Of a stretch of DNA of 37,498 bases, positions 18,270 through 37,498 are shown in pieces. Where the stretch lies: the NCBI GenBank assembly GCA_001275005.1, contig JWZX01003294.1:1-37498 (forward strand), in the 5' to 3' direction. This stretch comes from Chrysochromulina tobinii (Eukaryota). The notes below the pieces were generated by a model that was not told the DNA's origin, ran no database searches, and was given only the letters and a program-made list of their open reading frames with translations. The position numbers and the translations under genes were made by a program. The number at the start of each line of letters is the position of its first letter. Within the stretch, counting starts at the first letter, position 1.

Positions 18270-19899
18270 ATGTCACCTGACGAGGGATCCGCTTCCGCCG
18301 AGGGCTCCATTCCCGCTACCGCGGGTGCGTGGGTATACACATGCAATGTGGGCGTCGAGGCGGAGGCGGCCGGGCGCGCTGTCCCCAAATCATTCCAGGC
18401 GCTCCGTCGCGACCTTGCGGTGTTGCCGTGGCTCCTTGCGACCGAGGCCGACCTCGTGATCGCGCCGCCGCCACTCCCAGACTTCATCGCTGCCCTGCAG
18501 GCCGCTGGGGTGAGCGGCATGTGCCAGTTTTGTGCGAGCTTGGAGGAGCTGCCGTCCTCTGTGCCGATCACAGGCCACCGTCCGTACGGCGTCGTGGGCC
18601 CTCACCTGCGCCGCTCGCTCGTCGGGCGCTATCGTGAGCACGGCGTCGTATGCCACTCGGTGGAGGCAGTGCGTGCAGCCGTGGCGGAGCAGCCCGACGA
18701 GCGCGCGGTACTCAAGGCCGAGTTTTCCTCCTCTGGTCTGGGCGTGCGCGTGTGCGAAGGCGCCCAGGACGGCGCGACCCCGATTGCAGCGGAGGGCTCT
18801 GAGCTGGCGCGCTGGGCGGCGAACTGCATCGCCCGCGACGGCGCGTTGCTCGTCGAGCCGTGGCTAGACATAGTCGCCGAGTTCACAGCGGAGTATTGGG
18901 AAGGGTCCTGGTGCGGTGCGCCTTTCCCAACATGACATGACTTGACTTGACTTGACTTGACTGGTGCGGTGCGCCTTTCCCAACATGACGCTGGCTGATG
19001 AGCCGTTACAATGAGCATCGGCGTTAATGGGGACACTGAGGGCCTCTGATGGCCTCTGATGGCCTCTGTTGGCCTCTGAGGGCCTCTGATGACCTCTCTT
19101 CGCGTCCGATCGCCCGCGTCATGTTGGGCGTCTGCTCTCCTCAGGTGCGGCATCTCGATGCCCATCGTCGAGCACCGCCGATGGATGGGCCAATGGCTAG
19201 GCTCACCCGCAGAGCGATACTCGTCGGAGGTGGTCCGTTTCGTCTTTGAGGAGCGACGAATCGAAGCAGCACTCGCGCCCCTCGACGTGCCAGGCACGTG
19301 CGGGCCACTGATGGCCTCTGATGGCCACGGATTGCCAGGCACATGCGGGCTCGAGACGAACCACAGCGATGACCTGCCGCATGTCATCGAGGCACATGCG
19401 GGCTCGTCACCTCGACTCGTGGTTCGTCACATCAACAAGTTTCGTCACACCGACTCGTGGTTCGTCACAGGTACGTGCGGGGTGCCCACATGCGGGCTCG
19501 ACGTCGCTGTGGTTCGAGATCACACGACTGGCGCGCTGCAGGTCAAGATCCTCGAGCTCTTGATTGCCCTTGATTGCCCTTGATTGCCCTTGATTGCCCT
19601 TAATTGCCCTTGATCTTGGCGCGCTGCAGGTCAAGATCCTCGAGCTCAATGCGCGCATGCAAGTGCTCACCACGGCGCGTCATCCCCTTTCCCCACAGGT
19701 CAAGATCCTCGAGCTCAATGCGCGCACGACGTTCTCGCACTACGCGCTGGCCGCCCAGCGCCGCGTGCCGCGCGCGGTGCGCTTTGAGGTGTTGCGTGTC
19801 TCCGAGGCGGCCGAACGCCCCAACCTCGTGTACTTGACCGACCCCCAGGTGGCGAGCATGTTCGTGGCGGTCGTTGAGGTGGCCGCCGCGAGGGTGTGA
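18270..19899 (+). CDS. ATP-grasp-fold protein; exons ~18270-18910, 19145-19293, 19471-19541, 19699-19899
   Basis: AVLKAEFSSSGLG, LLVEPWLD, GLDVAVVR and KILELNARTT (the E-x-N-x-R ATP-grasp signature). Removing introns 18911-19144 (GT), 19294-19470 (GC) and 19542-19698 (GT) gives one continuous frame. The start is uncertain. Confidence 0.75.
19542..19698 (+). other. Stacked introns 19542-19629 and 19630-19698, each starting with a copy of the downstream exon
   Basis: caggtcaagatcctcgagctc occurs three times. The first unit holds a (ttgattgccc)n array and the second holds the shared 3' module. Confidence 0.85.
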
Positions 19900-20269
19900 G
19901 ACCGAGGCGATGCAGGAGAGCCGTAGCCGTCACGGTACCGGTAGTGGGGTGGCGCAGCACTGTTAGCGCCAAGAGCTCCCGAGGCGCGAGGCCGTCTTCG
20001 AGACGGTGGAGTACGTGAGCGCGGGACCGTCTCGATCCTCATGGATCCTCTCGAACTTTGACTGGACAATAGGAGGAAGACTGGAGGCGCGTGCCAGTTC
20101 CGGTAGGATGAGAGGCTCGTACAATCACTCGTCGTACAGGGCAGCGAGCACCAGGGACCACCCTGAAGCGAGGGAGCGGGAGGAGCGCGACGAAACTGGA
20201 CGAGGCGTCGACGTTACACCGCGAACTTGAACAGATGTCGCGCCCCTGCTCGCAGTCCAGGAAGGGAAC

Positions 20270-22941
20270 ATGACGGTCCTTCCCATCTCCGACACGTCCG
20301 GCGAGCTGCCGGACCGTTTTTCCTCGGGCCAGCGCATCAGCAAGCGCGACTACTTGTACATGAATCAGACCGTCGGCTCTTTGCCGCGGGCTGGCGAGAC
20401 ACAAGAGGGGCAGCAGCTGGCCGACACGCTCCTCGGCAAATTGTCAGCAGCCAGGAGCTCCGCCTCGCCGCCTCGCAAGGCCGCCGAGGCCTTGCCACTC
20501 TTCATGCTCCCGGCGCTGAGCAAGCGCCAGCTCGCCTCGAAGGCCGATGCCTTGGTCGAGCAGGCGCTCTCGATCGAGACGGGTCGATTTGCGTCCAACC
20601 AGTCGGCGTGGCGTACACGGGCCAATCGCACCTCGAGGTGCACTCGGCAGTCAGCAGCGACGTGCGCAAGCGGATCCAAGAGGCCGCCATGCTGACCGCC
20701 TCCATGCCGTGGAAATCGCCTCGCGACGAGTCCGAGGTGGCGAGCGTGCTCGCGTCTATCGCCGCGGGCACGACGCCCCGAGCTTCGCAGCAGCCCTCGA
20801 ACGCCACCTCCAAGCATCCCTCGAAGCCGAGCACGCCGCGCGCCGAGGACGGCTCGCGCGCCTCGAAGCTCTCCTCCATCGCCTCAAAGGAGCCCTCGAA
20901 GCCAGGCACGCCGCGGGACGGACAGGGCTCGCGAGGCTCTCGACCTTCGGCGCCACCGCCGGCTTCGGATTCGTCAACTGACGACATTGACGATCGCCGT
21001 TGGGTCGCGACGCGCGCGAGCGTCGTCACGCCCGCCGCCACCGCCGCCGCGGCGCGCGCGGCGATGCTCGCCGCCGGCACGCGCTCGTTTGCGTGCGTGC
21101 TGGGTGCGGAGAGGCTCTCGTTAGCCAGTCGCGCCGCGCTCAGTACGACGCTCGCGCCAGGAGCGCTCAGTACGACGCTCGCGCCAGGGGCGCTCAGTAC
21201 GACGCTTGCACCGGTGGCGAGCCCTCGAAGCGATGCGGCGCTGCTGGGCGCGATGCGTACGCTGCAGCGCACCGCCGTTGCCGCCGAGGGCGCGACCGTG
21301 CTGCTCACGGCGTGCCTGCAAGCGCAGTCCCTCATCAACGCGACTGACGTGTGCTTACTGCTCTGGCGCTCGCCTTCCGCGACCGACGGGCCGACCGTGC
21401 TCCGTCCGTCCGAGCCCGACACGGCGCCCCATCGGAATGCATGCGCTGCCCTCTATGGAGACCAGACGGCCCTCAGGCTGCTCGGGCGCGCCGCCGCGGG
21501 CGCTCACCTGCTCTCCCTGTGCGCCCAGGACGACGCGTCGCCGGCGGGTGCGGCGGTGCCCGCGGCGGGCGCGCCTGGATCCGTGGAGTTCACGGGCGTC
21601 GTCTCGAGCGCACCTGGATCCGTGGAGGTCGCGGCCGCACTCGCCAACGCCGCGGTGCCGCTCAGCACGACGCTGCCGCTCAGCGTGCTGAACCGGTTTG
21701 CCATGAGCCTGCGACGCGCCCTCGCGATCCCGCTGCCGCTGCCCTTCCCTCACGGTCCGGCCCTCATGCTGCTCGCGGATGGTGCTCGCATTCCTGCGGC
21801 ACGAGCGCCTGGCGCGCCCACGACAGCGCCCGACCCACCCGCCGCCGCCAGCGCGCCAGCGGCGCCGCCCGTGGCACCCTACACTGTGGAAGAGCAGCTC
21901 GAGATTCAAACGCTGGTCACCGCTGCTGCAGCCATCTTTCCCACAGCTCGGTCGCAGCCCCCCGATGCGCCCACGGCAGCGCCCGCGTCGGCGCTCAGTA
22001 CGGCGCGCTCCACCGCCGACGGCCCAGGGGCAGCGCGCTCGCCACGGCGCTCGCCGCGCTCGCACGTGCCGACGCATCATCACGTCGCGCACTCGCACCC
22101 GCCGTTTGGGCGCATGCGACCCGTCCGAGCCGCCGCCGGCCCGCTGGCCTCGGCCGGCTCTGCCGCGTTTGGCTCCACGGCCGATTTCGTCACTTCCACA
22201 GCCTCCGGCGGCTCTGCCAAGTTTGGCGCTTCCGTGGGCGCTCCCGCCGCCACCCACCGAGGTTCGCCCAGGGAGATCGGTTCGATGCGTTTTGCCGGCG
22301 GCTCGCCGGGTAGCTCACCGTTCGGTCGGTCGTCGCCGTCGCGCTCGGTGACGGCGAGCGCCGTGGTAACGGCAGGGCTTGCGACTGCATTCCCCGCCTT
22401 CCCCGCCTTCCCCACCTTCCCCGCCTTCCCTATCACGGCCCTCGATGAGCCCGTCTTCTTCCGATCGCCTTCCGCCGGGGCTGCTTCGCCGCGGCATGCC
22501 GGAGTGTCACTTCACCCGTCCGGAGCGCCGTCTTGGCGCCTGCCCAGCACGCCCCCGCACCCACCGGCGCTCGGCACGGCGCTCGGAGCTCCCTCGAGCT
22601 CTCCGATGAAGCCAGGGACGCCGCATGAGCTCGGGCCGTCCCATGAGCCCTCGAAGCCCAGCACGCCGCGATCCGAAATTGGAGCGAATGGTGCGCCCGG
22701 TCGGCCGCCCTCCCGAGGCCGCAAGGCAGGCCAGCCGGGGCGAACGGAGCAGATGGAGGTGGCCGCCCAGACCGACGCTGTCCACTTTGCAGACAGCTTC
22801 AGCAGCTTCGCGAGCTTCGGAGCCCGCACATACCCGCCGCTGCTCGGCTCGTCTCTCGCGGCATCGGCAGATGCGGCATCGATTGCGTGGGCGCGATCCA
22901 GGCTGCTTGGCGGTGGAGGCCATCGCGCGTATCCCTACTAG
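20270..22941 (+). CDS. Ala/Pro/Ser-rich hypothetical protein with a possible degenerate GAF-like domain; apparent frame break near 20600
   Basis: Long ORF with GC3-biased codons. Segments ACLQAQSLINATDVCLLL, ALAIPL and YTVEEQLEIQTLVTAAAAIF recall GAF topology. ALSTTLAP is repeated 3x (27-bp unit). ORF 20270-20695 looks coding in another frame. Confidence 0.5.
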
Positions 22942-23260
22942 AGCTTGGGCAGTCGCCGTCGGCAACGGCATGCATGTGAGATGTGTGCGTGCCTGGTCGT
23001 GTAGTGTATGCGGCGTACACGGATTGACCTTTGACGCGGGACAGCACAAGAACTTATAAAACAGCACAAGAAATTTTGACACAAGTAGGTAGCCTCATCG
23101 CTCATGGATTAGAGGACACGCAGCCGTGGTCGCGGCGGGACGCGCGCACGACGATATTGATGACACCGCCATCAGCGAAACCGACAAAAAGCGTCGTTTC
23201 GACAAACACGCGGCGCGGAAAGGGTGTTCAGGTGAAACAGAACTTTGCCGACCGCGCATC

Positions 23261-24541
23261 ATGGCAGCATCGACCCACGGGCATTTCATCGTTGGCCGCT
23301 CAGCCGGGTGGACATTGCAGCGGAAGGGGCGTGTGCCAGCAAGGCCAGCAACGGCGCAGTTCAACAACTATGGGAGAAAACAACTGCAAGACTTGCGCTA
23401 CGTTCAAGGCGACAGCGGGGGCTTTGGACTAGCGGTGAGCCATCCCTCTGACGAGGTACAGGCTCGTGCACGGCCGATGAGTGCATACATGAAGAAGGAA
23501 ATGGATAGCCTGGTCTATCGGGCCGATCGGGCAGGTTTCATAGTGGATCCTCACACGGAACCTCAGACTTGGCTGTCGCCGGGTACTCAACAGCCGCGTC
23601 CACAAAATGCAGCTGGCGCAGGCCGCAGCTTGACAAGGCCCTCGCCGTCTCCTAACGGCAGACTCAACAGGTCCAGCGCTCTCACTACGCCGAACTGGTT
23701 TGGTGCTGTCGGTGATATTTACCACCCGGTGCTCGATGAGAAACATGGGTATGAGCACCAAGATTGGTCTGCTATTTCTTCAGGAGTATTGCTCGACAGG
23801 AGTGGCCTTGGTGGGCGCGATGCTGCTCCGACGATGGCCGCAGGGTCTAAGTCGGTCGGCCTGGCTGTTGGCGCCACGAAATCCTACTCCGACGAGACGT
23901 CTTCGGCTGAGATTACTGGCTACGGCTATCCTAAGCCGATGGCAGGCCACGAATTAGCAGGCCACAAGTCTACTGAAGTTAGCTCGCTGCCAGTTGCCCC
24001 TACGAATGCGCACTCCTTCAAGAATGTGACTGCGCACAAGCGACTGCGCTCAATCGAGTGCGCAGCACTCGAGAATCAGATTTTCCCGCAAGGCCATACC
24101 ATGGATACATCCGCCATGTCACCAAGGTCACGCACGTTATTCGCGCAATCGCAATCGCGAGTGGAAGAGATCTTCTCACCTGTGCGCACCAGCGAGCAGC
24201 GCGGCGCTACTTCGATCGCTCAACCACGGTACTCGGGTGCCCTGCCGTCCCATTGCAACACTGGCGTCATGACAGCGCCTTCGATGCATTACGATGCAAA
24301 CGACTTTGGCACCACGCGCCCTGCCTTTTCCCCAGCAGTTCGCATAGGGACAAACGTGGCCAGTTACGTCACCGGGTACTCTGCCAACTATGCGGCCAAT
24401 TTTGGAGAATCGCGGAAGGTGCAATCCCCACTGCAGATCAAGATCGGAGATCGGCATTCTCCCACCCATCATAGAGGGTTTTTGGTGAACATCGGCGGAG
24501 TCACGACAAAGGCTAACAATATCGACGCCAGAACGTTCTGA
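23261..24541 (+). CDS. Hypothetical, largely disordered protein
   Basis: Uninterrupted ~426-codon frame from the first in-frame ATG, in lower-GC sequence where long chance ORFs are unlikely. No family recognised. Confidence 0.6.
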   Translation: MAASTHGHFIVGRSAGWTLQRKGRVPARPATAQFNNYGRKQLQDLRYVQGDSGGFGLAVSHPSDEVQARARPMSAYMKKEMDSLVYRADRAGFIVDPHTEPQTWLSPGTQQPRPQNAAGAGRSLTRPSPSPNGRLNRSSALTTPNWFGAVGDIYHPVLDEKHGYEHQDWSAISSGVLLDRSGLGGRDAAPTMAAGSKSVGLAVGATKSYSDETSSAEITGYGYPKPMAGHELAGHKSTEVSSLPVAPTNAHSFKNVTAHKRLRSIECAALENQIFPQGHTMDTSAMSPRSRTLFAQSQSRVEEIFSPVRTSEQRGATSIAQPRYSGALPSHCNTGVMTAPSMHYDANDFGTTRPAFSPAVRIGTNVASYVTGYSANYAANFGESRKVQSPLQIKIGDRHSPTHHRGFLVNIGGVTTKANNIDARTF

Positions 24542-24993
24542 TGAACATCACATCTTGTGACTGTGCACGCAACTCCTGTGGGACGTTTCGCGATTCGACA
24601 TTGGATGTCGAAGAGGCGGCTGCCGTGTGGACTATGGTTGATGTTGTGACGGCGCGGCGGGAAAATGTATTGGCGTGTTTGTTGTGGGCGTCGGCGGGCT
24701 GGGGCTGCCTCGTGGTCGGTGTGTTCTCATGGAGTGTCGTTGGTAGACCGCCTCCGCGGCGCGTGGCGTGGGCCCGTAGCGCGTGAGGCGGACCAGCTGT
24801 AAAAGTGTACTACACGTTCACGTGTGCTTATTAGGTTTGCTGCCTTTACGAAGCGACGCGACGCGTAAGGACGCGGTACGCCGGCCGTGGGCGGCTCGTG
24901 GCCGGGTGCGGGTCGCGTGCGTCCGTCGCCGGCGTGACCGTGGCCCAGCGTTTTGCGCTTACGTTCGTTTCACCGAATCTCAGTATAAGGGAG

Positions 24994-26556
24994 TCACAAG
25001 TCCTCCAGCGCAAGCAAAGCAAAGCGGCTTGCTGGCGGTGGCGGTGGCGCCCGTGCCGGTGCCGTTGGCGTGGCGTGAGGCAGGGCACTGATTGAGATTG
25101 TAGGTTTGGTCGCATCCTCGTCCTCGTCCTCATCATCTTCGTCTTCGTCCTCGTCTTCGTCCTTGTCCTCGTCCTCATCCTCGTCCTCGCGAGTTTCCTT
25201 GTTCTTCGCCTTCTCACGCTGCAGCCGCTGCTGCACGGCCCTGGGCGCCAGCACTGTCGGCGCGCTTCGATGCATCTTGAGTTGATCAATCGCCTCCTCC
25301 ACCTCGGCGATCTTCGAGTCGTAGATCACCTTGGCTGCCACCGCCTTTGCCCTAACATGGGTCTGCTCCCGCTTGGCTGCACGCTTGGTCAGCGCCCCTC
25401 CGGTCGGGCAACCATCCTCAGCGCCCCAAAGTGCCTCCGCCCGGCTAGTCAGAGTTCGAAGGGCCGGGTGTGCCGTTGGCGCGGGCCGCTCCATGAGACA
25501 CCGGCTCAAATGGGTGCCGAGTGAGGCGAGCTCGTGAACGACCGTCCGGAAGTTGGCCCGGAGGGTAGGGAAGTAGGCGAGGAACTCGTCGCCCTCGCGA
25601 CAGCGTGCGACCTCGAGCAGTCGCCGCCGTTGCATCCGAGCCTGCTCCTCGCTCAGAGGCTTGCGACGCTGAGCGCCGCCATGCTCCGCCCCACAGTCCT
25701 TCCGGAGGTTGTGCTCGCCAATGTGGTGGAGCGCCACGTAGCTCGGCGATTTGACTTTGAGGCGACGAAAGCATCCATCGACCGCCACGTACCCCTCGTG
25801 CTCCACCGGATTGAGAGCGCGCGCCGCTGCTTGAACTGCTGCTAGGGACACGGGCGCTGGCAGCCGCGCCGGCGTCGTCCAGCCGTACTCGGCTCCCACT
25901 GCCTCCACGTCGAGCTCTTCGAGTCTCACGAGGTCGCGCGCGCCGATGAGCGAGAGCGAGGCCGTCGCGTGCCGCACGACGATCGTGTGCCCGGGCAGGC
26001 AGAGCTCGAACATGAAGCAGCGCTGCTGGGCGGCCGGCGCGATGGGCAGAGAGAAGCCCGCTGCCGCAAAGGCTTTCCAGAAGATGCAGGCGAATGTGCC
26101 GCCACTGGAGCCGGGCACCTCGCCATCAGCCGCGGGTAGCCTCATGCTTGCGACGTGCCAACAGCCGCCATACCAGTACAGCGTGGTAAGCGAGCCATCG
26201 AGCTTCTCGTAAACGCGCGCCGTGGACCAATCGAAGGCCTCGCGTGTCGCCTTTGCGTTGGGCTCGTCGGCGTTGAAGAATTTTGAAAAGGGCATCATGA
26301 CAACACGCCAGGTATTCTTCTCGAGCAAGAGCCCGCGGCACTCCTGCACGACCGCGTTTGCAACGTCCGACGCTCGCTGATCATAAGAGAGCTGCACAAG
26401 CGGCAGCTGCGGGTGGTGCCGCGCCGTCAGCTTGTACGCATCGCAAAAGTCATCGAGGCTCATGCCCGAGCGTAGCTGGCGCACAGTGCGAAGAACGTCG
26501 CCATGGATATCCTCAACGGGCGCCGAACAATGCTTGGTCGTGGTCCGCGAGGGCAT
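24994..26556 (-). CDS. T4 Rnl1-like RNA ligase with acidic C-terminal tail
   Basis: QECRGLLL, PFSKFFN, nucleotidyltransferase motif I YEKLDGSL, FMFEL, motif IV EGYVAVD and motif V RLKVKSPSYV. Confidence 0.88.
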   Translation of the reverse strand: MPSRTTTKHCSAPVEDIHGDVLRTVRQLRSGMSLDDFCDAYKLTARHHPQLPLVQLSYDQRASDVANAVVQECRGLLLEKNTWRVVMMPFSKFFNADEPNAKATREAFDWSTARVYEKLDGSLTTLYWYGGCWHVASMRLPAADGEVPGSSGGTFACIFWKAFAAAGFSLPIAPAAQQRCFMFELCLPGHTIVVRHATASLSLIGARDLVRLEELDVEAVGAEYGWTTPARLPAPVSLAAVQAAARALNPVEHEGYVAVDGCFRRLKVKSPSYVALHHIGEHNLRKDCGAEHGGAQRRKPLSEEQARMQRRRLLEVARCREGDEFLAYFPTLRANFRTVVHELASLGTHLSRCLMERPAPTAHPALRTLTSRAEALWGAEDGCPTGGALTKRAAKREQTHVRAKAVAAKVIYDSKIAEVEEAIDQLKMHRSAPTVLAPRAVQQRLQREKAKNKETREDEDEDEDKDEDEDEDEDDEDEDEDATKPTISISALPHATPTAPARAPPPPPASRFALLALEDL

Positions 26557-26961
26557 GGATCCTCTTTCGCAAGACCAGGGCCCGCCCAGAGGCCCGCCCT
26601 GCGCAATCCGAGCACACAACGCTTGCCTTCGCAAGTCGCCGCAAGTTCTGCACGTTTACAAAACCAAGGTGTAATGTAAGGAAGCAGGAGGAAGAGCCTC
26701 GCACAAAAACTACTGTGGACACCTTATGTACATGCGCATGCTCGATGCGCATGCCCTCATGGGGCGATGCGAAAAAATGCCCTGGCACGCTGGCTCCCGG
26801 CTCTGCAATGCGAGACGAGACCAGGGACGAGACGCGCACGCTGATACTCTAAAGACGCCGGAGTGAAGACCGACGCACACGCGCACAGGCGCGCATGGCT
26901 TGAGAGACACGGTCTCTCTGCTGGGTTTGGTCGCAGCCCCGGCAGTACCGTCTGGACAGCC

Positions 26962-27645
26962 TTAGCGGGCGGGCCACGCAGGATTCTCGAGCCGCCTGCC
27001 TCCGAGCTGCCTCCCCTTGTGCGTGAAGCTGTGGTTGACGAGCGCCAGTAGCGGCACGCCGAGCGTGTAGAAGGTGCCGCGGGCGCGCCCGCACAGCGCA
27101 TGTTTACGGACGAGCTTGTGGCACAGATCAAACTCGTCCACCGGCACAGTGTCGGCCCACGCGCCCTCTCCGACGGCGTACTTCCTGTAGATTTTGTAGT
27201 CGGCTGCGTCCATGTGAAACTTGGGGTCGAACACCATGGCGGCGATGGCGGTAGATCGGACCTTTTTCGCGAGCACGAATCCAAGCAGCGACTCGAGCGC
27301 TGCGTGGTTGCGCAGGTGCGGCGGCTCCTGCCACCACGTGAAGATGTCGGCGTCGAGGTTTGGCGCCTTGCGATAGTCTGAGCACAGCACCTCGAAACCG
27401 TTGCCGCCCGCCTGCTTGAGCGCATCCGAGCGCTCCCGGAGCTTGCCGCAGTAATGCGTAGCGAGCTCGACCGCGGTGGCCTTTTTGGCGTACTTGCAGA
27501 AGCACGACATGCCGTCCCCGTTGCGTGTGCCGATCTCGATCACCTCTTTTCCGACGAAATGCGGGAGCAGTGACGTATGGACGTCTTGCGGCGACCGAAT
27601 GGGCGTGCCGTCGACGGGCGAGGAGACGATGACGCTGCAGTTCAT
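26962..27645 (-). CDS. Putative class I SAM-dependent methyltransferase-like protein, paralogue of 1346-2191; probably has an upstream exon
   Basis: PIRSPQDVHTSL..FVGKEVIEIGTRNGDGMSC aligns with PLRSPQSVHTAL..FAGQSIIEIGTRNGDGMEC. A short gtaag..ctgcag segment (~27635-27675) would join ORF 27672-27872 in frame. Confidence 0.72.
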   Translation of the reverse strand: MNCSVIVSSPVDGTPIRSPQDVHTSLLPHFVGKEVIEIGTRNGDGMSCFCKYAKKATAVELATHYCGKLRERSDALKQAGGNGFEVLCSDYRKAPNLDADIFTWWQEPPHLRNHAALESLLGFVLAKKVRSTAIAAMVFDPKFHMDAADYKIYRKYAVGEGAWADTVPVDEFDLCHKLVRKHALCGRARGTFYTLGVPLLALVNHSFTHKGRQLGGRRLENPAWPAR

Positions 27646-27918
27646 GGGTGTCGACCGCAGCGCGGCGGGCCTTACGTTGGTGTGCAGCTCGGCGGCCTCT
27701 TCGTCTCCTCAGAGAACTTCACGGGCGCCAAGATGGGCGGTCTCGAGAATGGCGATGCAGTCAGCTCGTGCGTCGTGTGTTCAAGTCCTCTGAAATACAT
27801 AAGGGCACATGCAACACACGAACAAGATTCGAGCCTGGCTGCGCGCCATGACGCATGAGCATGTTGCGACACGGTAGTGATCAGGAGTGCTCGTACTAGT
27901 ATCTCACTCTGTGTATAA

Positions 27919-30051
27919 TCACTTGGCCCCGGCGCCGGTCAGCTCCTCAGCTGTGATCATCAGGGGTCATCAGAGGTCATCGGCAACGGCGCCCCCGCCC
28001 CCGGCGCACCCGCGGTCGCGCCCGACACGGCGCCCGGCGCGTCGATGTGGAAGGTGCGCCTAAGCTCTTCGAGCTCGCCCGACACGGCGCCCGGCGCGTC
28101 GTTGTGGAAGGTGCGCCTATGCTCCTCGAGCTCGCCCGACACGGCGCCCGGCGCGTCGATGTGGAAGGTGCGCCTATGCTCTTCGAGGCTCTTCGAGCTC
28201 ACTCAATTCTGCTGCCGCCGCGGCGCTCGCAAACCCATCGAGCAATGATACCGCCTCGGCCGACTTCTCTTTTGGTCTTCCTTGGCTGTCCTCGGCCTCG
28301 AGCAGCTCAGCCACCTGCGGCGAGGGCTGACCGTTGTTGGCGCGGTTCGCGCGTAGCATTTGAGCCGCCTCGACCTTGGCCTCCACGTCACCGGTCACGT
28401 ACACGTCGCGTGCACGCTGCCGGCGCACGCGCAGGCCGGGGTCGGGTGGTGGCGCGCCCACGCCAAGCTCAAAGACCGGTGTGAAGATGGACTTCACGAT
28501 GAGCGGGCCGTACTCGAGTGTGAACCGTGCGAGGTAGGCCACAAAAGCGAGCGCCACCTTGGGCGGGAATTTGAAAAAGATGCTGATCCCGAAGAGGATG
28601 CGCGCGTCCCACGTGGCATGCTTCTCGTTGCCAGGCAAGCCGTCCCACCCAGCGAGGAAGCCGCCCCACGTGACCATGTCGAGCTTGAAGAAGGCATCAA
28701 AGAAGCCCCGGAGCATCTCAACGGGCTGGGCGCCGAGGAACTCGCCTCCAAAGATGGCAAAGTCGCGTTGGAGTCGTCTGCCGTACGGCCAGAGCGCCGC
28801 ATGCGCCGCCGCTGCCGCCGCGTCCGGGTCAAACTTGTCCGGACCCCGGCGGAGCTCTGCCGAGATCGCCTCGGCGACTTCAGTGGACGAGGCGAGCATG
28901 CGGCAGAGCTGGAAGCCGGTCGCGGGGTGCACGGTGTTGGCAGCGCCGCCAAAGGGCACGACGCGCTGCGTGGGCGTGGGCAGGGTACCGCCCATCGGGA
29001 TGTAGCAGTACTCCTCGTCCAGGATCTTGGTCGGGTCGTACTTGATGCCATGGAAGGCGAGCCGGCGCTCGAGCCGCTTCTTGAGCGTCGCGAACTCGAG
29101 CCGGCGCTCGCCTCGGCCAACGAGGGACGTTTCCTCGAAAAAGATCTCCTTGCCGGGCCCCTCGCCTACCGGCATCACGTAGACGAACGAAGGGCGCTCC
29201 TCGCCATCGTCGTACAGCTCCGTGCCCGCAAGGTGGTCGGTGCGGTAGTCGAAGAGCGTCATCGCCTCGCTCGCGTACGGCCCCAGCGCGCCGCCCTCGA
29301 CGTCGACGCACAAGCCGTATGCGATCTGGTAGCCGGGCGGAATCTCCTTCCACAGGCCTCCACTCTCCGGGGCGTCGCGCAGCGTGAGGCGCGACTCGAA
29401 GCCGGTGGCGTCGACGACGACGCTCGCGCGGATGATCACGGGCTCGCCGCCACCCGTCGGCGACACGGTCACGCTCGAGCCGCTCGCATCGTGCACCAGG
29501 TCGCCATCGAAGAGGTTCACGTTCACAGCGTTCGCGGTCACCAGACCTTCGATGAGCTCGACGCCGCCCGCCACATGCTTCTGCTGCAGCATCTTCTTGA
29601 GCGCCCGCCGGTTCACCTGCAAATAGGGCCGGTCCACCCGCGTGCGCTGATCGGCCGGCATTTCGAACGAGCCGCCAAAGTAGAAATCGGTGACGGCCCA
29701 GTGCTTGTTGACGCACTCGAGCAGCTCGGGCATCTTCAGCTTCGATGCGAGCGCCTCCCACTCGGCCCGCCACGAGCCGTAATTATTGGGCCACGGCGTC
29801 TGCGGCCTCGGATCAATGAGCGCCACCTTGTGCTTGTCGCGAGCCAGCAACGCCGCCATCACGTAGCCGGCCGGCCCGCCGCCGATCACCGCCACATCGA
29901 ACTCGCTGCTGCCAAGCATGCTCGCCGTGCTGCATCGGGATTTGCACACATCGATGGCGGTGCGAGCGTGGGTCGCAGCATGCGTGGCGAGGCCGTGCGC
30001 CGGATGAGCAGCCGCGAGCAACACGGTCAACACCGTCCGCTTCCCCTTCAT
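27919..30051 (-). CDS. LCYB: Lycopene cyclase (CrtL/LCYB type), plastid-targeted; probable last intron 27951-28202 (the unspliced ORF stops at 28174)
   Basis: FAD-binding VIGGGPAG, WPNNYGSW, YQIAYG, FFEETSLV, EYCYIPMGG and VHPATGF, with signal peptide MKGKRTVLTVLLAAAHPAHG. Confidence 0.92.
28021..28199. repeat. 57-bp tandem repeat, ~3 copies
   Basis: cccgacacggcgcccggcgcgtcg recurs at 28021, 28078 and 28135. Confidence 0.95.
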
Positions 30052-30295
30052 TCTCGCTCGCGTTGACCTCGCGCAACGAGATTCGACGAATCCAAAACTG
30101 AGGGTAAGTACATTCGAGAACTGTGTGTCTTCACCAGCGGCTTGGCGCTACACGGGAATTTCGAACACGTTGCTTCCGACGAAGCCGCGCGTAATTCCGC
30201 AGAACTCTCCTTGGAGATGTGTCCTTCGTAAGCGTCCTCGGAGGCGAGCCGCAAGGTGCAGCGAGTCACCACTTCGAATCGCCGGGCGAAGGAGC

Positions 30296-30730
30296 ATGCC
30301 GTACGACAACAACGGCAATTTCATCGAAACGTGTGGCGATGCGTGCATATCCAACCGATTTGCCAAGGATTCGGGCAACGCCGCCAAGGTGGACATTGCG
30401 CCAGCCGTGCTGTGCGGCTTTGGGTGCGGAGGATAGTAATGAACGGCGCGTCTCGAACCATCGCTCACAACTCGAATCTCTGCCTGACATCATCTATTGC
30501 TGCGCGTGCGCAGCGGATTACCGACTCGTGGTGGCATGTGCATCAAGTGCATCAAGTCACGTGGCATGGAAGAGGTTTTCCCAGAGGCAGCTGCTGTGCA
30601 GCTCCCAGAGGCAGCTGCTGTGCAGCCTCCGAACCTGATGGACCTCGCAACCTTGGAGCGCACGCAGCCATTCCGAGTAGAAGCACCGCCTGTGTCGCTC
30701 GGCACACTTTCACCAGCCCGACCTCCATGA
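30296..30730 (+). CDS. Small A20-type zinc-finger protein; exons 30296-30435 and 30514-30730
   Basis: Removing a 78-nt gtaatg..ctgac..gcgcag intron gives PAVLCGFGCGGYGLPTRGGMCIKC, matching the A20 pattern LCx3CGxxGxPxxxxMCxxC. Confidence 0.78.
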
Positions 30731-31009
30731 AACTGCCGCCCTCCACCGACTAGGACGTATAGGAGTCGGGATGGGGATCTCTACTTGCTGTAAAGTTCAT
30801 TTTAGTGAATGTGAAGATGACGAGACTCGAACGACACTTCACCCTGGGACCCAGCGGGGGCTGACGGGTGCGGACTCTCAGGCGCGTGGGCAAAATTGTA
30901 ATTCCTCCGCTGGACCGCTGCCACCTGCCTCGCGTCGTGCGGCGCCAGCCCTCCGGAAGACGAGGTCGCTATCTCCATGCTCAGTCTCGAGAGCGCAGTG
31001 CCTCCGAGC

Positions 31010-32532
31010 TCAGAGGCCCTCTCTCGACCACTCCGAGTAGTGCTCCGGGTAGCGCTCGAAGTGCTCTCGCAGCGCTGCCCTCTGCTGCTCGCCATTCCAG
31101 TCCAGCTTGTCGTACACGTCTGTGAACATGTGGACCGCCGCCGGGCGTGGCGCCTGGCTCGCGACGTTGAGCGATGCGATGGCGTCGCGCCGCGCCTGCG
31201 TCCGTAGGTAGTCCTCCATCTGGGTGTTCCACCAGCCGCGTGATGCGAGGTAGCGCCCGAAGCGAATGATGGGCGATCTCGCCTCCCAGAACGCGCGCTC
31301 CGAGTCCCACCCCTGATGAGGGAGGCAATCAGGCGGCCATCAGCGGCCATCAGCGGGGTCCCCACACCTCGACCGGAGCGCCGCGTGTGCGGTACTGATC
31401 AGGGAGGCAATCAGGCGGCCATCAGCGGCCATCAGCGGGGTCCCCACACCTCGATCGGAGCGTCGCGTGTGCGGTACTTGGTGTCGTCATCGCTCGTTGA
31501 GTGCGCCCCGATTCGGTACGTCATCGCCTCAATGAGGCACGGGCGCCCCTCGTTGAGACAAATGTCGCGCGCCTTTTTCGTCGCGGCCACAACGGCGAGG
31601 AGATCGTTGCCGTCGATCCGGATCGTCGGCAGACCAAAGGCAGGGCCACGTGGCGCGATGCCGTCCGACCGGTACTGGTCCTTGGCGTTGGTCGAGATGG
31701 CATAGCCGTTGTTGCGGCAGAAGAAGATCATGGGTGAGCCGTGCACGGCGGCAATGTTGAGCGCGGAGGGGATGTCGCCATGCGAGGCCGTCCCTTCGCC
31801 AAAATAAGCAATCGAGATGCGCGGCTGCCGCGTGCGCTTCATGTGCAGAGCCACACCCGTCGCGTGCGGCGCCTGGGTCGCGAGCGTCGACTTGACGTAC
31901 AGGATGCAGCGCTCCTTGGAGCCGATGTGCAGCGGCAGCTGGCGGCCATGCGCCGGGTCGTGCGCGGTCGCGCACAGCTGGTTGGCCACCTCCTGGAACG
32001 TGAAGCCCCTCCAGAAGAAGACCCCTAGCTCGCGGTACTGGGGCAGAACCCAGTCATCGGGCTGAAGCGCCGCGGCCGAGCCGACCGTGGCACCCTCCTC
32101 GCCGCGGCCCGTCAGGTAAAAGGAGATGCGCCCCTGCCGCTGCGCGTCGAGGAAGATCTTGTCAAACTCGTTCACGCGCAGCATCGTGTGCATGCACGCG
32201 AGCGCGTGCTCACGAGAGAGCGCCGGCACGTGCGCCTCCGCGCCCGGAACCACCCTGCCGAGGTCGTCCATGATGCGGAAGCACGGCATGGCCGCCGGCA
32301 CGTTGTCGACGTGCGGGTACCAGAAGTCCATGGACGTCGTGTACGACGATTTGGCGCCCACGAAGAGCGTGCTCTCACCCGTCGGCCGCGTCGGCTGCCG
32401 CAGGCGCGCGATCTCCTCGCGCAGGCGCGCGTTTTCAAGCTCAAGGTCGGAGAGGCGCGCGGTACAGAGGCTTCGGCGTGGCGCACGTGCGAGCTGCGGC
32501 AGCCGGCGAGGGAGCGATCGAAGGCTTCGCAT
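31010..32532 (-). CDS. BCKDHA: Branched-chain 2-oxoacid dehydrogenase E1 alpha subunit, mitochondrial; intron region 31313-31449
   Basis: AQRQGRISFY, QYRELG, YFGEGTASHGD, RNNGYAIST and YRIGAHSTSDD. Arg-rich mitochondrial-type leader MRSLRSLPRR. The 3' exon GWDSERAFWE..FTDVYD joins in frame. Confidence 0.95.
31313..31449 (-). other. Two near-identical 55-nt introns flanking a 27-nt copy of the upstream exon end
   Basis: gtgtggggaccccgctgatggccgctgatggccgcctgattgcctccct[g/c]atcag occurs at 31395-31449 and 31313-31367. The spacer 31368-31394 encodes YRTRGAPVE, against the genuine YRTRDAPIE. Confidence 0.9.
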
Positions 32533-32683
32533 CGAAGAATGACGAAACGCGGGCGGCCTTCGGCCTTCGCGCGACAGTGCAAGACACACCTTCTGTGCAA
32601 GAGTGTGGTGTGGGTTTTACACAAATGTACATGTAACCGTTTCCACTCCGCATCAAACTTGCACAAAAACTTTTCGCGCGCTC

Positions 32684-34378
32684 ATGGGCTCCTCCAACTC
32701 GAAGGGCTCCTCCTCCACCTCGACAGAGGCCACCACGATTCGCGCTGTGCTCCGCCGAGTCCTCCGCCGAGTCCTCCGAGGAGCTCGAACTCCGACGAGC
32801 CGCGACTTGCTCACCGGCGGCCTCGGCGGGCCGCCCACGGCCCAGTCGCAGACGAGCGTCGCGAACGCACCGAACCCCTACTTTGACGTTGAGACGCTGC
32901 TCGCGTCGGTGGGGAGCGGCGCGATCGCGGCGGTGAAGGGCACCTGGCTCGTCGGCCTGCACAAGCGCGGCGGCCGCCTCTCGCGCCGGCAGGACCTTCC
33001 GCCCGAGGCCTTTTGGTCGGCGGGCGAGCTGCGGAGGGTCGCGCTGGCGCTGGGCGACGAGTTTGGCGTGCTCTTCGTCGCGCTGTCGTACCGGTGGCTC
33101 ACAAAGGAGCACCCCGACCCCGACGGCTTCCACCTCGGCATCGTGGCGTCGGTCGCCGAGCTCTACCTCAACCCGAGGGGGTGGACTAAATATGGGCTTG
33201 ACCATTATTCGCAGCTCACCGCGGCGTTCAAGAAGCACGGGCTCGGCCTCCCCGAGTTCGCGCTGTTCTGGGACTTTGCGAGCCTGCACCAGCCGCCGCG
33301 CACCGACGCCGAGGCGAAGCTCTTCCCCAAGGGCCTGCAGAACTCCAATGTGTGGTATGGCCACGCGCAAACCGTCGTGTGGATGCAGAGCGAGCTGCCC
33401 GAGGGGTTTGCGGCGCGGATGCGGGCGAGCGAGCCGCCCCTCGCGGAGACGTACGAGGACTCGGGCTGGTGCTACGTCGAGGCCGCCATCAGCGCCGCCA
33501 TCAAGCCCGGCTTCCTGCGCCTCGACCTGGCCAAGCGTACTGAGCGGGCGATGGCGTGCGCCTACGGCCCCGGGGAGCCGTATGAGGATGATGCCAGCAT
33601 GCTCGCGCGCGTGTGCGCGCGGCGTCGGCCGCCGCCGCCGTCGCCGGAAACGGTCCGGCGCCTGCTGCAGACGGAGAAGCGCTTCACCAACTCGTCCGAC
33701 GTGAGCAAGGTCGCGGACCTGTATGCGACCTTCTTCGGCAAGGTCACCAACGTCGGCGAGCTCAAGTTCGAAGGGCTCGAGTGGGGCGACGCCGACGTCG
33801 TCGAGCTGTGCGAGGTGCTGCCCCGTTTTGCGGCCTTGAGGACGCTCGACCTCTCCCGGAACAAGATCGGTCCGGAGGGGGCATCCGCACTCGGCGAGGC
33901 GCTCAAGGTCAACGCGGTGGTGACCACCCTCGACCTCGGGTGGAACAAGATCGGCGACAGTTGGAACAGCATCGGCGACAACGGTGCCAAGGCAATCGCG
34001 GAGGCGCTCAAGGTCAACGCGGTCTTGACCAAGCTCAAGCTCTTGGGCAACAACATCGGTCCAGAGGGAGCCATCGCGATCGCGGAGGCGCTGAAGGTCA
34101 ACGCGGTCTTGACCAAGCTGGAGTTGGGCTACAACTCCATCGGCGACGACGGTGCTAAGGCGATCGCGGAGGCGCTGAAGGTCAACGCGGTGATGACCAC
34201 CCTCGACCTCGGAGGCGACAACATCGGGGTTGAGGGTGCCAAGGCGATCGCCCAGGCGCTGAAGGTCAACGCGGTCCTGACCAGACTGAACATCCAGGTC
34301 AATAACATGGGAGATGCAGGGAAAAAAGCGGTGCAAGATGCGGTGAAGGACCGGAGTGGATTTGTGTTGGAGCTGTAG
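32684..34378 (+). CDS. N-myristoylation-motif protein with HET-like N-terminal domain and C-terminal RI-like (NLRC3-type) leucine-rich repeats
   Basis: MGSSNSK start. ALSYRW..HPDP, LFWDFASLHQ and YEDSGWCYVE are HET-domain-like motifs. About six 28-aa repeats of the form NxIGxxGAxAIAEALKVNAVLTxLxL follow. Confidence 0.85.
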   Translation: MGSSNSKGSSSTSTEATTIRAVLRRVLRRVLRGARTPTSRDLLTGGLGGPPTAQSQTSVANAPNPYFDVETLLASVGSGAIAAVKGTWLVGLHKRGGRLSRRQDLPPEAFWSAGELRRVALALGDEFGVLFVALSYRWLTKEHPDPDGFHLGIVASVAELYLNPRGWTKYGLDHYSQLTAAFKKHGLGLPEFALFWDFASLHQPPRTDAEAKLFPKGLQNSNVWYGHAQTVVWMQSELPEGFAARMRASEPPLAETYEDSGWCYVEAAISAAIKPGFLRLDLAKRTERAMACAYGPGEPYEDDASMLARVCARRRPPPPSPETVRRLLQTEKRFTNSSDVSKVADLYATFFGKVTNVGELKFEGLEWGDADVVELCEVLPRFAALRTLDLSRNKIGPEGASALGEALKVNAVVTTLDLGWNKIGDSWNSIGDNGAKAIAEALKVNAVLTKLKLLGNNIGPEGAIAIAEALKVNAVLTKLELGYNSIGDDGAKAIAEALKVNAVMTTLDLGGDNIGVEGAKAIAQALKVNAVLTRLNIQVNNMGDAGKKAVQDAVKDRSGFVLEL

Positions 34379-35558
34379 AAAATGATTGTGAGAGCACTGT
34401 GAACATGTGTGGATCGCTGTTTTGTGTTCTGTGAAGTTATTTCCTAATTTGGAAGCTGCCTTAAAAGGCGTTTTCAATAGGGTGCTGAAAAATTTACGCA
34501 AAGCGAGCGCGCGCTTCCACAGAGAAGTTCGCAAGTTCGCCTGTACGGGGTGAGTGCTCGAGAAAAAGTGCTCGTCATGCTGGCTTTCTTCCAGACACCC
34601 GCGGCTCACACGAAGGTCTCTCATGCTCGCACTCATGTCGCACGACGCCAATGGCGCCCTGAGAGTCACCCTCCGAGCCGTCGAGCTGTGACGGCTGGCG
34701 CCCTAAGCCACGGCGCGACGGCTGCCCATAGGTGCCGGCTTATCGCCTGCGCGCGTACCAGCCCGCCCGCCCGGTCAATCTGGCCAAGATGGCGCGCAAG
34801 CGTGCACAGCAGACGCGCATTGCCTTCCGCAAGCCTGCTCTACGCAGCGTACACCTTTGCTGTTTTGCCATCTGGTGATCACAATTCGCGGCTGCGGTCT
34901 TGGTGACAAGAAGCATTGGGGTAGCGAACAGCTGTAGCGGGCGCTGCATGATGGTTTCCCTTGCTTCGGCCCTTCGCAGCTTCGCGTGGCTCTTCGAGCC
35001 GAGCCCGAGCGGCCTCACCTCGTGTCGTTCCTAACTTCCTATACTCGTCCGGCTACAAGGCAGTCATCCAGAGGACGTCGAGAGTGTAAAGAAATTTAGC
35101 GTAGCGCATGGCTGTATCCGGAATCTGCATAGTAAACGTGAAGTAAACGAAAGCCGAGAACGTAGAAGCTTGACGGTGGTGCTGCGGGCGGCCACCGCGT
35201 CTGTGAAAATGTGAAAAGCCGGCTCCGGAAGAGGACGTCGGTTGTGGCGAAGCATCAAGCATACGACGGCAACGCGATCTCGATCGCGGCGCGCGCGATC
35301 GGGAAACCAAATCTTGCGCCGCGGAGCTGACAGCTTAAACGTTTATTTATGCGGTGCGTGCCGAACGGTCGCCACGTGATCGCGAACATGTTAGATGTTA
35401 CGGCGGCCAACGTGGTAAAACAACGATCCGCGCGCCCCCCGGCACCGGACACGCCTACCGTTACTATACGATTGGCTCCGCTAGAGCTAGCGCTGCGGGC
35501 CACATGCCCAACTACGTACTACATCTCAGGCTGCACCGTAAGCATCTATGAGACTCCC

Positions 35559-37421
35559 TCACGAGAACATAAACTTCAGGTCCTCGAGCCGCGTCGCCCG
35601 CTCCTTGTAGTCGCTCGGGTCGCGCGCGTCGAGCGCCCCCTTGACGAGGGCCGTCTTCTTCGCGTGCAGCTGCAGGATGCGGTCCTCGACGGTGTGCTGC
35701 ATGAGGAAGCGCTTGACCCGCACCGCGTGCGATTGGCCGATCCGGTGCACACGATCGATTGCCTGCTCTTCGACCCCCGGATTCCACCAAGGATCGAGCA
35801 GGTAGACAGTCTGGGCGGCCACGAGGTTGAGGCCGACGCCGCCCGCGCGCAGCGAGAGCAGGAGCACGCGCACGCTCGGCTCGCTCGCGAAGCGCTCGAG
35901 CGCCTTGGCGCGCGCAGGCTGCGCCATTGAGCCGTCGAGCCGCTCGTACCTGGGGCCATCATCAGCGGCAATCGGGCCATCAAGTCATCAGCGGCAATCG
36001 GCGGGGATGAGACTGGCACTCAGAGCATTCGCATCAGAGCACTCGCAGAACATCGCACTCAGATCAGCGCTGCTGAGCGTACTCGATGCCTTCGTGCTCG
36101 AGAGGCCTCTGCACGAGGTCGAGCATCGCCGTCCACTGCGAGATGATCACCGCCTTGCGCACGCTCGGCACGACGCTCGTGCTCGGCACCGCGACCACAG
36201 GCGGGCCGAGCGCCGTGCTGAGCGTCTCCGTCAGGTCGGCCATCAGAGCCGTCAGCTTCGTCGACGGGCGCCACGCCTTGTCAAGGTCGACCGCGAACCG
36301 CGACTTGCGGGGGAGAGTGAGCAAATCGGCCCGATGGACCGTCTCGCGGCACACTGGGCACGGCGCAGCACCCATGGCGTTCGCCAAGCAGCCGCTGATG
36401 CACTCGCGGCAGAAGACATGGGCGCAGTTGGTGATGACGGCGTCCTCGGGCGCGTCCAGGCAGATGACGCAGCACGACTGCACGACCTCGTGGTCCGAAG
36501 CGCCCAGATTCGAATCTGGCGCCGCGAGATTCGAATCTGGTGCGGCGAGATTCGAATCTGGTGCGGCCGTCTCGCTCGGCGGCAGCGGCAGCGGCGCACC
36601 CGCGCCCGCCGCGCCCGCACCCGCGCCTACGCCGAGCGAGGATGAGCGGCTGAGCTCACGCAGCGCATTATGAATGAACGCGGGGCCGCTGTGAACGGGG
36701 CCGCTGGCGCCGCTGCCGCTGCCAGCTTGCTGCTGCTGCTGCTGCTGCTGCTCGGCGGTGCGCTGCTGCCAACGTTTGAGCAGCACATCTCCGATGGCAT
36801 TGAGGTCCTTGGAACAATCCGCGCGCGAGAGCACCAGAAATGGGTGGTCGCATGCCTGGCGCATCTGGAGCAGCATGGCGAGCACCGAGGCATGCGTCAT
36901 CGTGGGTAATTACAGGGCTCATCAGAGGGGCAGTACCTGGAGCAGCATGGCGAGCACCGAGGCATGCGTCATCGTGGGTAATTACAGGGCTCCTCAGGGC
37001 TCATCAGGGCTCCTAAGGGCTCATCAGAGGGGCAGTACCTGGAGCAGCATGGCGAGCACCGAGGCGTAGTTGTTGAGAACCTTGCCCTCAGCCACGAACG
37101 CGTCGAAGCGCACCTTTGACTGCGTGCGCAGCGCCTCATAGAAGTCGAGCTCCTCGGCTGTGAAAAGGAGCTTCTCGATGACCGTCTGGCGCGGCGGCAG
37201 CATGACGATCGGCTGGCCGTCTGCGCCGCGCGTCGCCTTCGTACGCCGAAGCAGCAAGGGGCGGAGGGCGCCATGCAGTCGCGTGAGCGCGCGCGCGTCG
37301 CGCTGCTCCAGCAGAGGACGCGAGATGACGCGCCGCCAGCAGCTGTACTCATCCAGGGGCGCGAGTCGCAGAAAGTGGAGAAGGGAGAAGAGCTCATCGA
37401 GATGGTTTTGGATGGGCGTGC
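35559..37421 (-). CDS. RAD5/HLTF-like SNF2 helicase with RING finger, 3' part (continues beyond the window); exons 37421-37039, 36864-36083, 35949-35559
   Basis: GTPIQN, LLLRRTK, LLQMRQACDHP, RING (CVICLD..CAHVFCREC..CPVCR), IISQWTAML, RLDGSM, SLRAGGVGLNL and DPWWNPGVEEQAIDRVHRIGQ. Introns 37038-36865 and 36082-35950 restore the frame. Confidence 0.93.
36865..37038 (-). other. Stacked introns 36937-37038 and 36865-36936, each ending with a 27-nt copy of the upstream exon end
   Basis: gcctcggtgctcgccatgctgctccag occurs three times. Both units start gtactgcccctctgatgagccc. Confidence 0.88.
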
Positions 37422-37498
37422 CTGCGGCATTGGGGATGAAGGGTGAGGGGTGAGAGGGGAGAGGGGAGGGGTGAGAGGGAAGAGGGGAGAGGGGAAAG

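Follow-up and report, generated by a model that had tools for sequence, protein, structure and literature searches.

The window analysed here, a stretch of 37,498 nucleotides of the Chrysochromulina tobinii genome (contig JWZX01003294.1), holds an unnamed gene at 18.2-19.9 kb and genes for lycopene cyclase, BCKDH E1-alpha, a SNF2/RING helicase and threonyl-tRNA synthetase (Table 1). Seven sites carry arrays of a short TGAT-containing unit, the coordinates and strands of which are as given in an earlier note on this DNA, and all lie on the sense strand of the gene. The repeat period, put there at 9-10 nt, measures 10 nt with some 11-nt steps; at the 35950 site, the units are irregular and Tandem Repeats Finder makes no call. 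The window contains 16 matches to the motif YTGATKGCC, where 100 dinucleotide shuffles give 1.48 ± 1.25 (at most 7), and 15 of the 16 matches fall within the noted arrays; the remaining one is a single copy in a SNF2/RING exon. A wider definition of the unit gave eight clusters, all at the seven sites and none elsewhere, in keeping with the claim that the intergenic DNA of the window is free of arrays. The claim that arrays occur only inside introns fails, because the one at 27955 sits in an unspliced 3' UTR, the other six sites being intronic, and four in-frame antisense arrays were met in other loci.

Table 1. Arrays, cassettes and introns in the window, with the basis of each assignment.
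Feature	Position	Strand	Basis or remark
Unnamed gene, intron 1	18911..19144	+	Homologues match exons 18327-18917 and 19146-19304; contains 18995-19094 array
Array, 6.2 ten-base units, CTGATGGCCT type	19036..19097	+	Tandem Repeats Finder and motif count
Unnamed gene, intron 2 (GC donor, predicted)	19294..19470	+	Array 19303-19337; homologue-matched exons
Unnamed gene, intron 3, with cassette of the second type (ATGCAAGTGCTCACCAC...CACAG)	19542..19698	+	Homologue-matched exons
Array, ~2.5 units, lycopene cyclase 3' UTR	27957..27983	-	PF05834; gene stop at 28174
BCKDH E1-alpha intron, 137 nt, GT-AG	31313..31449	-	RNA joint; same junction in C. tobinii model
Terminal cassette: predicted branch point, pyrimidine tract, AG	31313..31332	-	Recurs at many other loci
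SNF2/RING helicase intron (predicted), 133 nt, irregular units	35950..36082	-	Reading frames
SNF2/RING helicase intron (predicted), 174 nt	36865..37038	-	Reading frame and Pfam flanks
Threonyl-tRNA synthetase intron (predicted), second cassette type	8562..8646	-	20-nt duplication from GT, without array

In the unnamed gene, the three sites at 19.0-19.6 kb fall in the gaps separating four exons matched by homologous proteins. The first 6 nt of intron 1, GTGCGG, are also the start of the next exon, and this intron harbours an internal duplication as well, with (TGACT)6 filler. The first 11 nt of intron 2 match the start of the next exon with one mismatch. Intron 3 contains a perfect 28-nt duplication from GT (19630/19699), and a later 31-nt duplication whose filler is the TTGATTGCCC array (19559-19614).

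With regard to the other genes, the splicing test with RNA contigs covered 27600-36200, in three RNA runs and a fourth, DNA-like run. The BCKDH segment is spliced as one intron in all three RNA runs, and the joint is absent from the DNA-like run. This intron consists of two copies of a block of two units plus the cassette end CTGATTGCCTCCCTCATCAG, which arose as an 82-nt tandem duplication of exon end and intron (Tandem Repeats Finder period 82); it matches the first bases of the following exon only weakly (9/12 nt by eye). A 27-nt micro-exon within it was not seen, as the RNA joint skips all 137 nt. Over the terminal cassette, the summed depth in the DNA-like run reaches 238, against about 8 on the unique flanks. 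The lycopene cyclase array, about 190 nt past the stop, is read through unspliced by RNA contigs of two runs (27791-28076, depth 5.0, and 27790-28048, depth 16.6), in which the coding part has depths of 13.6 and 22.4. A spliced last exon across it was rejected, since no RNA joint crosses; a donor-like GTGCG lies nearby at 28009, with a G changed in the DNA-like run. The intron status of the two SNF2/RING sites comes from reading frame and Pfam flanks, RNA cover being near zero at the 35950 intron, the first 5 nt of which, GTACG, equal the start of the next exon. The other shows a mirror-image arrangement, in which the upstream exon's final 27 nt, with AG at their end, are repeated and supply the acceptor, and CTGATGAGCC units lie at 36985-37027 and 36916-36925.

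A wider test used 123 non-redundant metagenome loci picked by the array pattern, the species of which is not established. In these loci, an array is often the 5' portion of a cassette whose elements keep a set order, (CTGATGACCT)n-CTGATTGCCT-CCCTCATCAG, of which 133 copies were counted, flanked by proteins from many Pfam families; the exact cassette end follows only 53 of 199 arrays. Unit spacing is strictly 10 nt in 759 of 904 cases. In 30 of 64 cassettes the terminal unit reads CTGATTG, the upstream units being mainly CTGATGA, and variants come in runs, identical neighbours numbering 134 of 272 against 111 ± 6 expected. Single inserts are 41-59 nt long in 12/19. Two strains of 96% identity differ in unit content by 60 and 10 nt, the differences between strain pairs being of length only; internal duplications also differ between strains. 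The number of units does not grow significantly with divergence of the duplication (rho 0.38, p 0.11, n=19). Copying of the cassette inside one gene is weak for cassette ends (p 0.05-0.09) and not seen for array make-up (0.66). C/D-box-like words are present in the repeat unit. A conserved hairpin was rejected, as the commonest terminal unit cuts the 7-bp stem to 5 bp. The cassette pattern gave no match in viral contigs and two in prokaryote genomes, about chance level.

The position of the terminal unit is consistent with the proposal that CTGAT serves as a branch point: in 55 of the 68 cassettes, the A of the terminal CTGAT stands 17 nt ahead of the acceptor, as a branch point would. The idea that the arrays supply multiple selected branch points found no support, the A of 471 internal units being conserved at 97%, no more than its neighbours (95-99%; C1 99%, T2 95%, G3 96% and C9 97%).

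The main feature lies at the cassette's right-hand end. In 37 of 68 cassettes, a second copy of the first bases of the following exon stands upstream, which holds for 1 of 68 controls (a shifted exon position, not old introns). After removal of four mis-hits, 35 of 64 cassettes have a duplication of 8-44 nt (median 24), and 29 of 64 have no long one. Thirty-one duplications start with GT, three with GC and one with TC; since 34/35 begin at GT or GC, splicing restores the gene exactly. Excision preserves the frame in all seven testable loci, giving recognisable proteins. In 34/35, the acceptor boundary is exact and lies directly against a donor consensus, with no in-frame offsets. Positions +1 to +5 of the exon after the cassette show G in 62, T in 53, a purine in 58, C in 41 and G in 41 (n=68), and 53/68 such exons start with GT, against a background of 4.9% in the loci. 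Left of the first duplication copy stands plain exon in 29/35 and a cassette in 6/35, and microhomology of at least 2 nt occurs at the left junction in 7/18, against 6% expected (6/17 without one mis-hit). The second cassette type, which has no array of its own, shows duplications in 16/25, against 3/25 controls. It is from the duplication by itself that we infer intron gain. The earlier note had missed this 8-44-nt duplication from the donor GT. Its suggestion that the arrays are filler at repair junctions is supported in part, by the left microhomology and by direct repeats, which flank 41 of 128 arrays and 10 of 128 controls; in 9 of the 41, classed as 'both', the duplication spans AG|GT.

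The bias in strand and gene context anticipated for the repeat word is strong in the metagenome loci. Called regions are sense in 97 and antisense in 6 (n=103), and Pfam matches were obtained for 18/72 in the sense reading, against 0/72 in the antisense one. On inspection, the six antisense calls of the codon model resolve into four sense cases (L006, L023, L029, L043), one that is probably sense (L106) and one true antisense case (L034). Four antisense arrays are read in frame as part of open reading frames, three of them with Pfam domains, and two show inserts of 78 and 57 nt. Coding flank within 500 nt is lacking for 1 of 105 arrays, against 22 of 400 control points. As had been predicted, a TGA turns up within 30 nt in each sense frame of the unit. 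Stop codons are absent from the antisense unit, and TGA occurs in every frame of the sense unit; most of the bias towards the sense strand and introns is therefore likely due to selection. The near absence of arrays from intergenic DNA is not explained by selection on splicing.

We think it moderately probable that the arrays consist of repeats of a decamer, the predicted branch-point part of a short acceptor cassette that likely gives rise to new introns through copying into exons. Look-alike introns in unrelated genes, splicing that restores the coding sequence and enrichment in genes on the sense strand are what is seen for introners, and the earlier suggestion of an introner-like family is thus borne out. 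The targets would be latent donor sites, GTRCG, within exons of the Chrysochromulina genome. At a staggered break, a free end would pair over a few bases with an array elsewhere, copy through the AG of the donor intron, and re-pair with the target at its own GTRCG, because most donor introns themselves precede GTRCG. The first copy of the duplication would become the donor, the cassette giving branch point and acceptor, and slippage may afterwards lengthen the array. Copies halting before the AG would leave bare repeat filler, which could persist in introns, in UTRs, or antisense in frame. As a tentative extension, possible rather than probable, the system may be a self-perpetuating generator without transposase, with cassette introns plus GTRCG as templates, exonic GTRCG as targets and the 10-11-bp sense-strand intron repeats of haptophytes as residue; the writer of new introns, exact and with long duplications, could then be repair or a spliceosome-linked reverse transcriptase.

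Other routes were weighed as well. Addition of the decamer to broken ends by a telomerase-like reverse transcriptase, from one short RNA template, would account for the strict 10-nt register, the left microhomology, and the bare arrays that lie at duplication junctions in both orientations without a cassette end, and the short CTC repeat bounding the unit could serve realignment. We nevertheless hold this proposal, made in the earlier note, to be unlikely: the units are ordered with a differing terminal unit, the variants cluster in runs as slippage yields, and the second cassette leaves an equal footprint without arrays. An Rfam scan of 18000-37498 came back empty, so known snoRNAs and template RNAs are absent from that part, although an undescribed RNA may lie elsewhere.

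In the second route, the 3'-OH tail of an excised intron would be joined to a transcribed gene at a donor-like site, or reverse-transcribed there, either by reverse splicing or by target-primed reverse transcription on a lariat tail. A duplication of variable length, exact at one end and ragged at the other, is reminiscent of target-primed reverse transcription. The cassette has such a footprint, with microhomology at its ragged end, and its strong genic bias and exact acceptor end, which abuts the donor consensus without in-frame offsets, fit as well. Routes of this kind are proposed for introners without transposon marks in the accessible part of PMC10996645. Against it stand the in-frame antisense copies and the weak copying within genes, and full reverse splicing would bring the 5' end of the donor intron itself, without a long duplication; we give this route a low probability. 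The tail of a non-LTR retroposon was rejected, the exact end being CCCTCATCAG, not poly(A) or a simple repeat, and the repeats lying at the ragged end.

That these are old introns with ordinary minisatellites, in which local tandem duplication ran across the acceptor, sometimes with exact loss of the first intron, appears quite improbable. It would suit the six duplications with a cassette at the left, the 82-nt duplication of the BCKDH intron, the strain differences in internal duplications and the intron repeats of Emiliania huxleyi taken up below; however, 29/35 duplications have plain exon at the left, each needing an exact intron loss, and neither the GT start of the exons after the cassette nor a cassette common to unrelated genes would be explained. 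It is very improbable that a DDE transposase moves the cassette as a classic miniature DNA transposon, with CTGATGA...TCATCAG as its inverted ends, even though the cassette can fold a short hairpin of 5-7 bp and marine Chrysochromulina carry introners (PMC9860276, in part): this reading is largely refuted by the variable duplication length, 8-44 nt against a fixed 3-8 nt in such elements (bioRxiv 10.1101/2020.10.14.339549, in part), and CTGATGA starts only 7/35 inserts.

Among haptophytes, introns of E. huxleyi reportedly carry strand-specific 10-11-bp tandem repeats, which are not known to have been connected with an acceptor cassette or with duplicated target sequence. These resemble, by description, the present arrays in period and in intron and strand bias. 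We found no description of the cassette in the literature, although Read et al. 2013 and the bioRxiv supplements may bear on its novelty.

The comparisons that follow draw on the accessible parts of the sources cited. In Symbiodinium and Polarella glacialis (classes 4/5, 6/8/10), the introner supplies the 3' splice site, with the target duplication giving the 5' site (bioRxiv 10.1101/2020.10.14.339549; PMC9860276). The cassette shares with these the look-alike introns in unrelated genes, the element acceptor and duplicated-target donor, the exact excision and the donor-like start of the following exon. However, their duplications are fixed at 3-8 nt, with inverted ends in Symbiodinium, whereas here they span 8-44 nt, with a ragged left end and a body of decamer repeats. 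Introners of marine Chrysochromulina MAGs (PMC9860276) belong to the same genus and are likewise repeated and strongly genic; the family figured there, compared by description, combines a 4-bp duplication with a 5' site of its own and lacks inverted ends. In the supplement of that paper, C. tobinii appears once in the genome list and in none of the introner rows among those listed.

Intron gain is also known from double-strand-break repair in Daphnia and from tandem duplication of AGGT (PMC3443670). Direct repeats flank the new intron there as here, where those at cassette-intron ends exceed background in the way expected of break repair or tandem duplication (37/68 versus 1/68), and some arrays lie within AG|GT-spanning duplications. 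In those cases there is either no insert or a different, unrelated one each time, whereas the insert here is a single stereotyped cassette, ready for splicing and present at hundreds of sites. Introners of Micromonas and fungal introner-like elements, which lack transposon marks (PMC10996645, PMC3443670), are similarly short, non-coding and nearly always co-linear with transcription, but they carry both splice sites, without long duplications, and the cassette, unlike them, has antisense copies. In the accessible parts, the C. tobinii genome paper (PMC4580454) mentions introns once and the present repeats not at all, PMC12130899 does not name Chrysochromulina, and PMC8379373, PMC11347835, PMC3152781 and PMC3298513 hold nothing about the cassette. 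The family would be missed by introner searches based on whole-intron similarity, because host sequence makes up about one third of each intron and a variable repeat the remainder. The family is also relevant to annotation, unspliced gene calls in C. tobinii ending within cassette introns.

Taken as a whole, the evidence suggests that the cassette makes introns by a route unlike that of known intron-making transposons. How exact new introns come about without a transposase is a long-open question, and the cassette family offers dated footprints, in the hundreds to thousands, in an alga that is in culture and of which several strains are already sequenced. These footprints allow direct tests of target-site rules, of donor tracing, and of the dependence on repair or reverse-transcription enzymes.

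All seven arrays of tandem TGAT-containing units that the earlier note had placed between 19039 and 37030 are present as described, with a period of 10 (9-10 in the note), and all seven lie on the sense strand, as it had claimed. The motif YTGATKGCC occurs 16 times in the window, against 1.48 expected and a maximum of 7 among 100 shuffles, and the window holds no further array clusters beyond these sites. Confinement to introns, also claimed, holds for six sites, but the 27955 array belongs to a 3' UTR and remains unspliced in RNA; no splice joint spans it among the RNA runs, and a donor-like site nearby has lost its G in another strain. The three arrays of the 19-kb gene are intronic, given the exon placement by homologous proteins, and both arrays of the SNF2/RING gene lie within predicted introns. 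The BCKDH E1-alpha gene clusters at 90% with KOO22268.1 (Chrysochromulina tobinii), and the C. tobinii gene model matches the window sequence across the BCKDH intron.

Features of the window (X1 and X15, sequencing runs whose contigs were compared with it)
Feature	Position	Observation
BCKDH intron	31313-31449	Excised as a single GT-AG intron in 3/3 RNA runs
Exons of 19-kb gene	18327-18917, 19146-19304, 19464-19559, 19696-19863	Homologous proteins
27955 array	3' UTR of lycopene cyclase gene	Crossed unspliced in two RNA runs
Mirror geometry, 27 nt	36865-37038	AG supplied by upstream exon end
(TGACT)6, a different filler	18933-18962	Junction of 53-nt-spaced duplication, intron 1 of 19-kb gene; gene call P0311 (one strain) reads as though this duplication were absent
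SNF2/RING intron	35941-35973	Single X15 contig suggests 33-nt duplication across acceptor
SNF2/RING intron	36016-36054	Single X15 contig suggests 39-nt-shorter allele between 9-nt repeats
57-nt repeat, three copies	28019-28187	Directly past lycopene cyclase stop; 134 nt skipped by a joint in X1 and X15
GT-AG intron of 78 nt, array-free	30436-30513 (+)	Spliced in 3/3 RNA runs; well-covered plus-strand transcript between lycopene cyclase and BCKDH genes
RNA ligase domain, T4 Rnl1-type	24994-26655 (-)	PF09511, E 1e-11; intronless 553-codon frame
Inverted repeat, 581 nt	1-581 / 1342-1922	97% complementary, 760 nt between arms
71-nt inverted arms	2394-3575	Enclose a block of GATACATGTATC-type repeats (10-11 nt) and TACGCAA repeats (7 nt); resembles a non-autonomous element
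72-nt inverted arms, 94%	4009-4080 / 7551-7622	3.5 kb inside, with amino-acid permease-like gene; 4009-7622 is possibly a gene-carrying transposon

A wider sample was drawn from metagenome contigs, scanned on both strands with a two-and-a-half-unit pattern. Two of 64 parts yielded 144 stretches, kept as 138 loci, and put the estimated total at about 4300. Overlapping loci were removed, 12 of the 138 in early analyses and 15 of the 138 in later ones, leaving 123. These loci, a mix of several strains that may or may not be C. tobinii, have a G+C of about 0.63, near the 63.4% given for C. tobinii in PMC4580454. A codon model, which had 2709 codons of the window as its training set and was correct in 32 of 34 held-out strand calls, called 103 of 217 regions, 97 sense-only and 6 antisense-only. 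Independently of this model, a Pfam scan of the longest flanking open frame per strand (72 of 139 eligible regions) matched the array strand 18 times and the opposite strand never. Two sense-coding flanks were found for 74/105 arrays versus 70/400 non-coding control points, and no coding flank for 1/105 versus 22/400. Adjacent arrays have the same orientation in 71/74 pairs.

The sense and genic bias foreseen in the earlier note is strong in the metagenome loci, but not absolute. Four antisense arrays are read through in frame by open frames (435, 638, 686 and 162 codons long). Three of these frames contain Pfam domains, and two of the four arrays are flanked by duplications, the inserts measuring 78 and 57 nt. 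TGA occurs within 30 nt in each frame of the sense unit and in no frame of the antisense unit, but the latter contains AG-GT and CATCAG, which may serve as false splice sites inside introns.

Arrays are followed by the fixed end CCCTCATCAG in 53 of 199 cases (exact match within 45 nt), and the terminal unit is CTGATTG in 30/64, upstream units being mainly CTGATGA. An A stands 17 nt upstream of the cassette end in 55/68. Of the 68 sequences downstream of this end, 43 were sense-coding, one was antisense and 24 had no call, versus 610, 528 and 1491 at background GTRCG sites. The following exon starts with GT, which makes up 4.9% of dinucleotides, in 53/68, with a tendency to GTRCG. At one locus (L036), three introns with cassette ends at 5052, 6140 and 8307 (minus-strand count) have in common the rare cassette variant CCTAATTGCCTTCC, possibly by local copying, the overall within-locus test being weak. 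In three other loci (L001, L006 and L076), arrays start with a common GTGAGTCTCGTYAATTGCCT-like 5' piece, in introns that take their acceptor from an upstream duplication; the piece is perhaps a donor-carrying cassette version.

The start of the next exon is repeated upstream of the array in 37/68 cases, versus 1/68 for a shifted control. Without four mis-hits the count is 35/64, with duplications of 8-44 nt (median 24). These 35 duplications start with GT (31), GC (3) or TC (1), and the first copy is preceded by plain exon in 29 and by another cassette in 6. Excision of the insert plus one copy keeps the frame in 7/7 cases with both flanks scoring as coding. Since no duplication was offset in frame from the donor, though in-frame inserts are tolerated elsewhere, the breakpoint appears to be fixed by the GT site and not by selection alone. 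Among all arrays, 41/128 have a flanking direct repeat of at least 10 nt, versus 10/128. A second cassette (ATGCAAGTGCTCACCAC...CACAG), with two copies in the window and no array of its own, shows duplications in 16/25 copies versus 3/25.

A few units arrive with the cassette, as 12 of 19 single inserts measure 41-59 nt and perfect duplications already enclose 1-4 units. Neighbouring units are identical in 134/272 cases (111 +/- 6 by chance), spacing is 10 nt in 759/904 and strains differ in whole units, as slippage predicts; a trend to more units with greater age was not significant (p 0.11). The multiple branch points proposed earlier do not appear to be under selection, since the branch-like A of internal units is conserved no better than its neighbours. 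At the left junction, target and repeat overlap by at least 2 nt in 7 of 18 cases (one of the 18 a mis-hit), versus 6% expected.

For the origin of these introns, we lean towards templated insertion, with staggered breaks as the starting point. A free end would pair with an existing array, copying would run through the donor intron's AG, and the copied end would re-join the target at GTRCG, a motif common to donors and targets. Such insertion would make the right end exact, the left end ragged and the duplication variable, and would also account for bare filler and for the rare copies in antisense. The scarcity of arrays in intergenic DNA is unexplained by it, and neither an enzyme nor a donor nor an allele lacking the intron was seen. 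Templating by a telomerase-like molecule is unlikely, a splicing-linked RNA route just as unlikely, and old introns reshaped by local duplication are less probable still. A DDE transposon is very improbable.

As far as the accessible text of bioRxiv 10.1101/2020.10.14.339549 and PMC9860276 goes, introners with the acceptor in the element and the donor from the duplication follow the same splice-site logic, but their duplications are fixed at 3-8 nt, whereas here they span 8-44 nt. Introns gained through break repair or tandem duplication are also known to have direct repeats, according to the part of PMC3443670 available, but without the recurring cassette found here. No description of the array-cassette family was found in the literature searched. 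Intron repeats of Emiliania were reportedly treated by Read et al. 2013. This analysis adds the link between array and cassette, the order and growth of units, the exceptions (arrays in frame in antisense or in a UTR) and the splicing of one intron as seen in RNA; the arrays are real.
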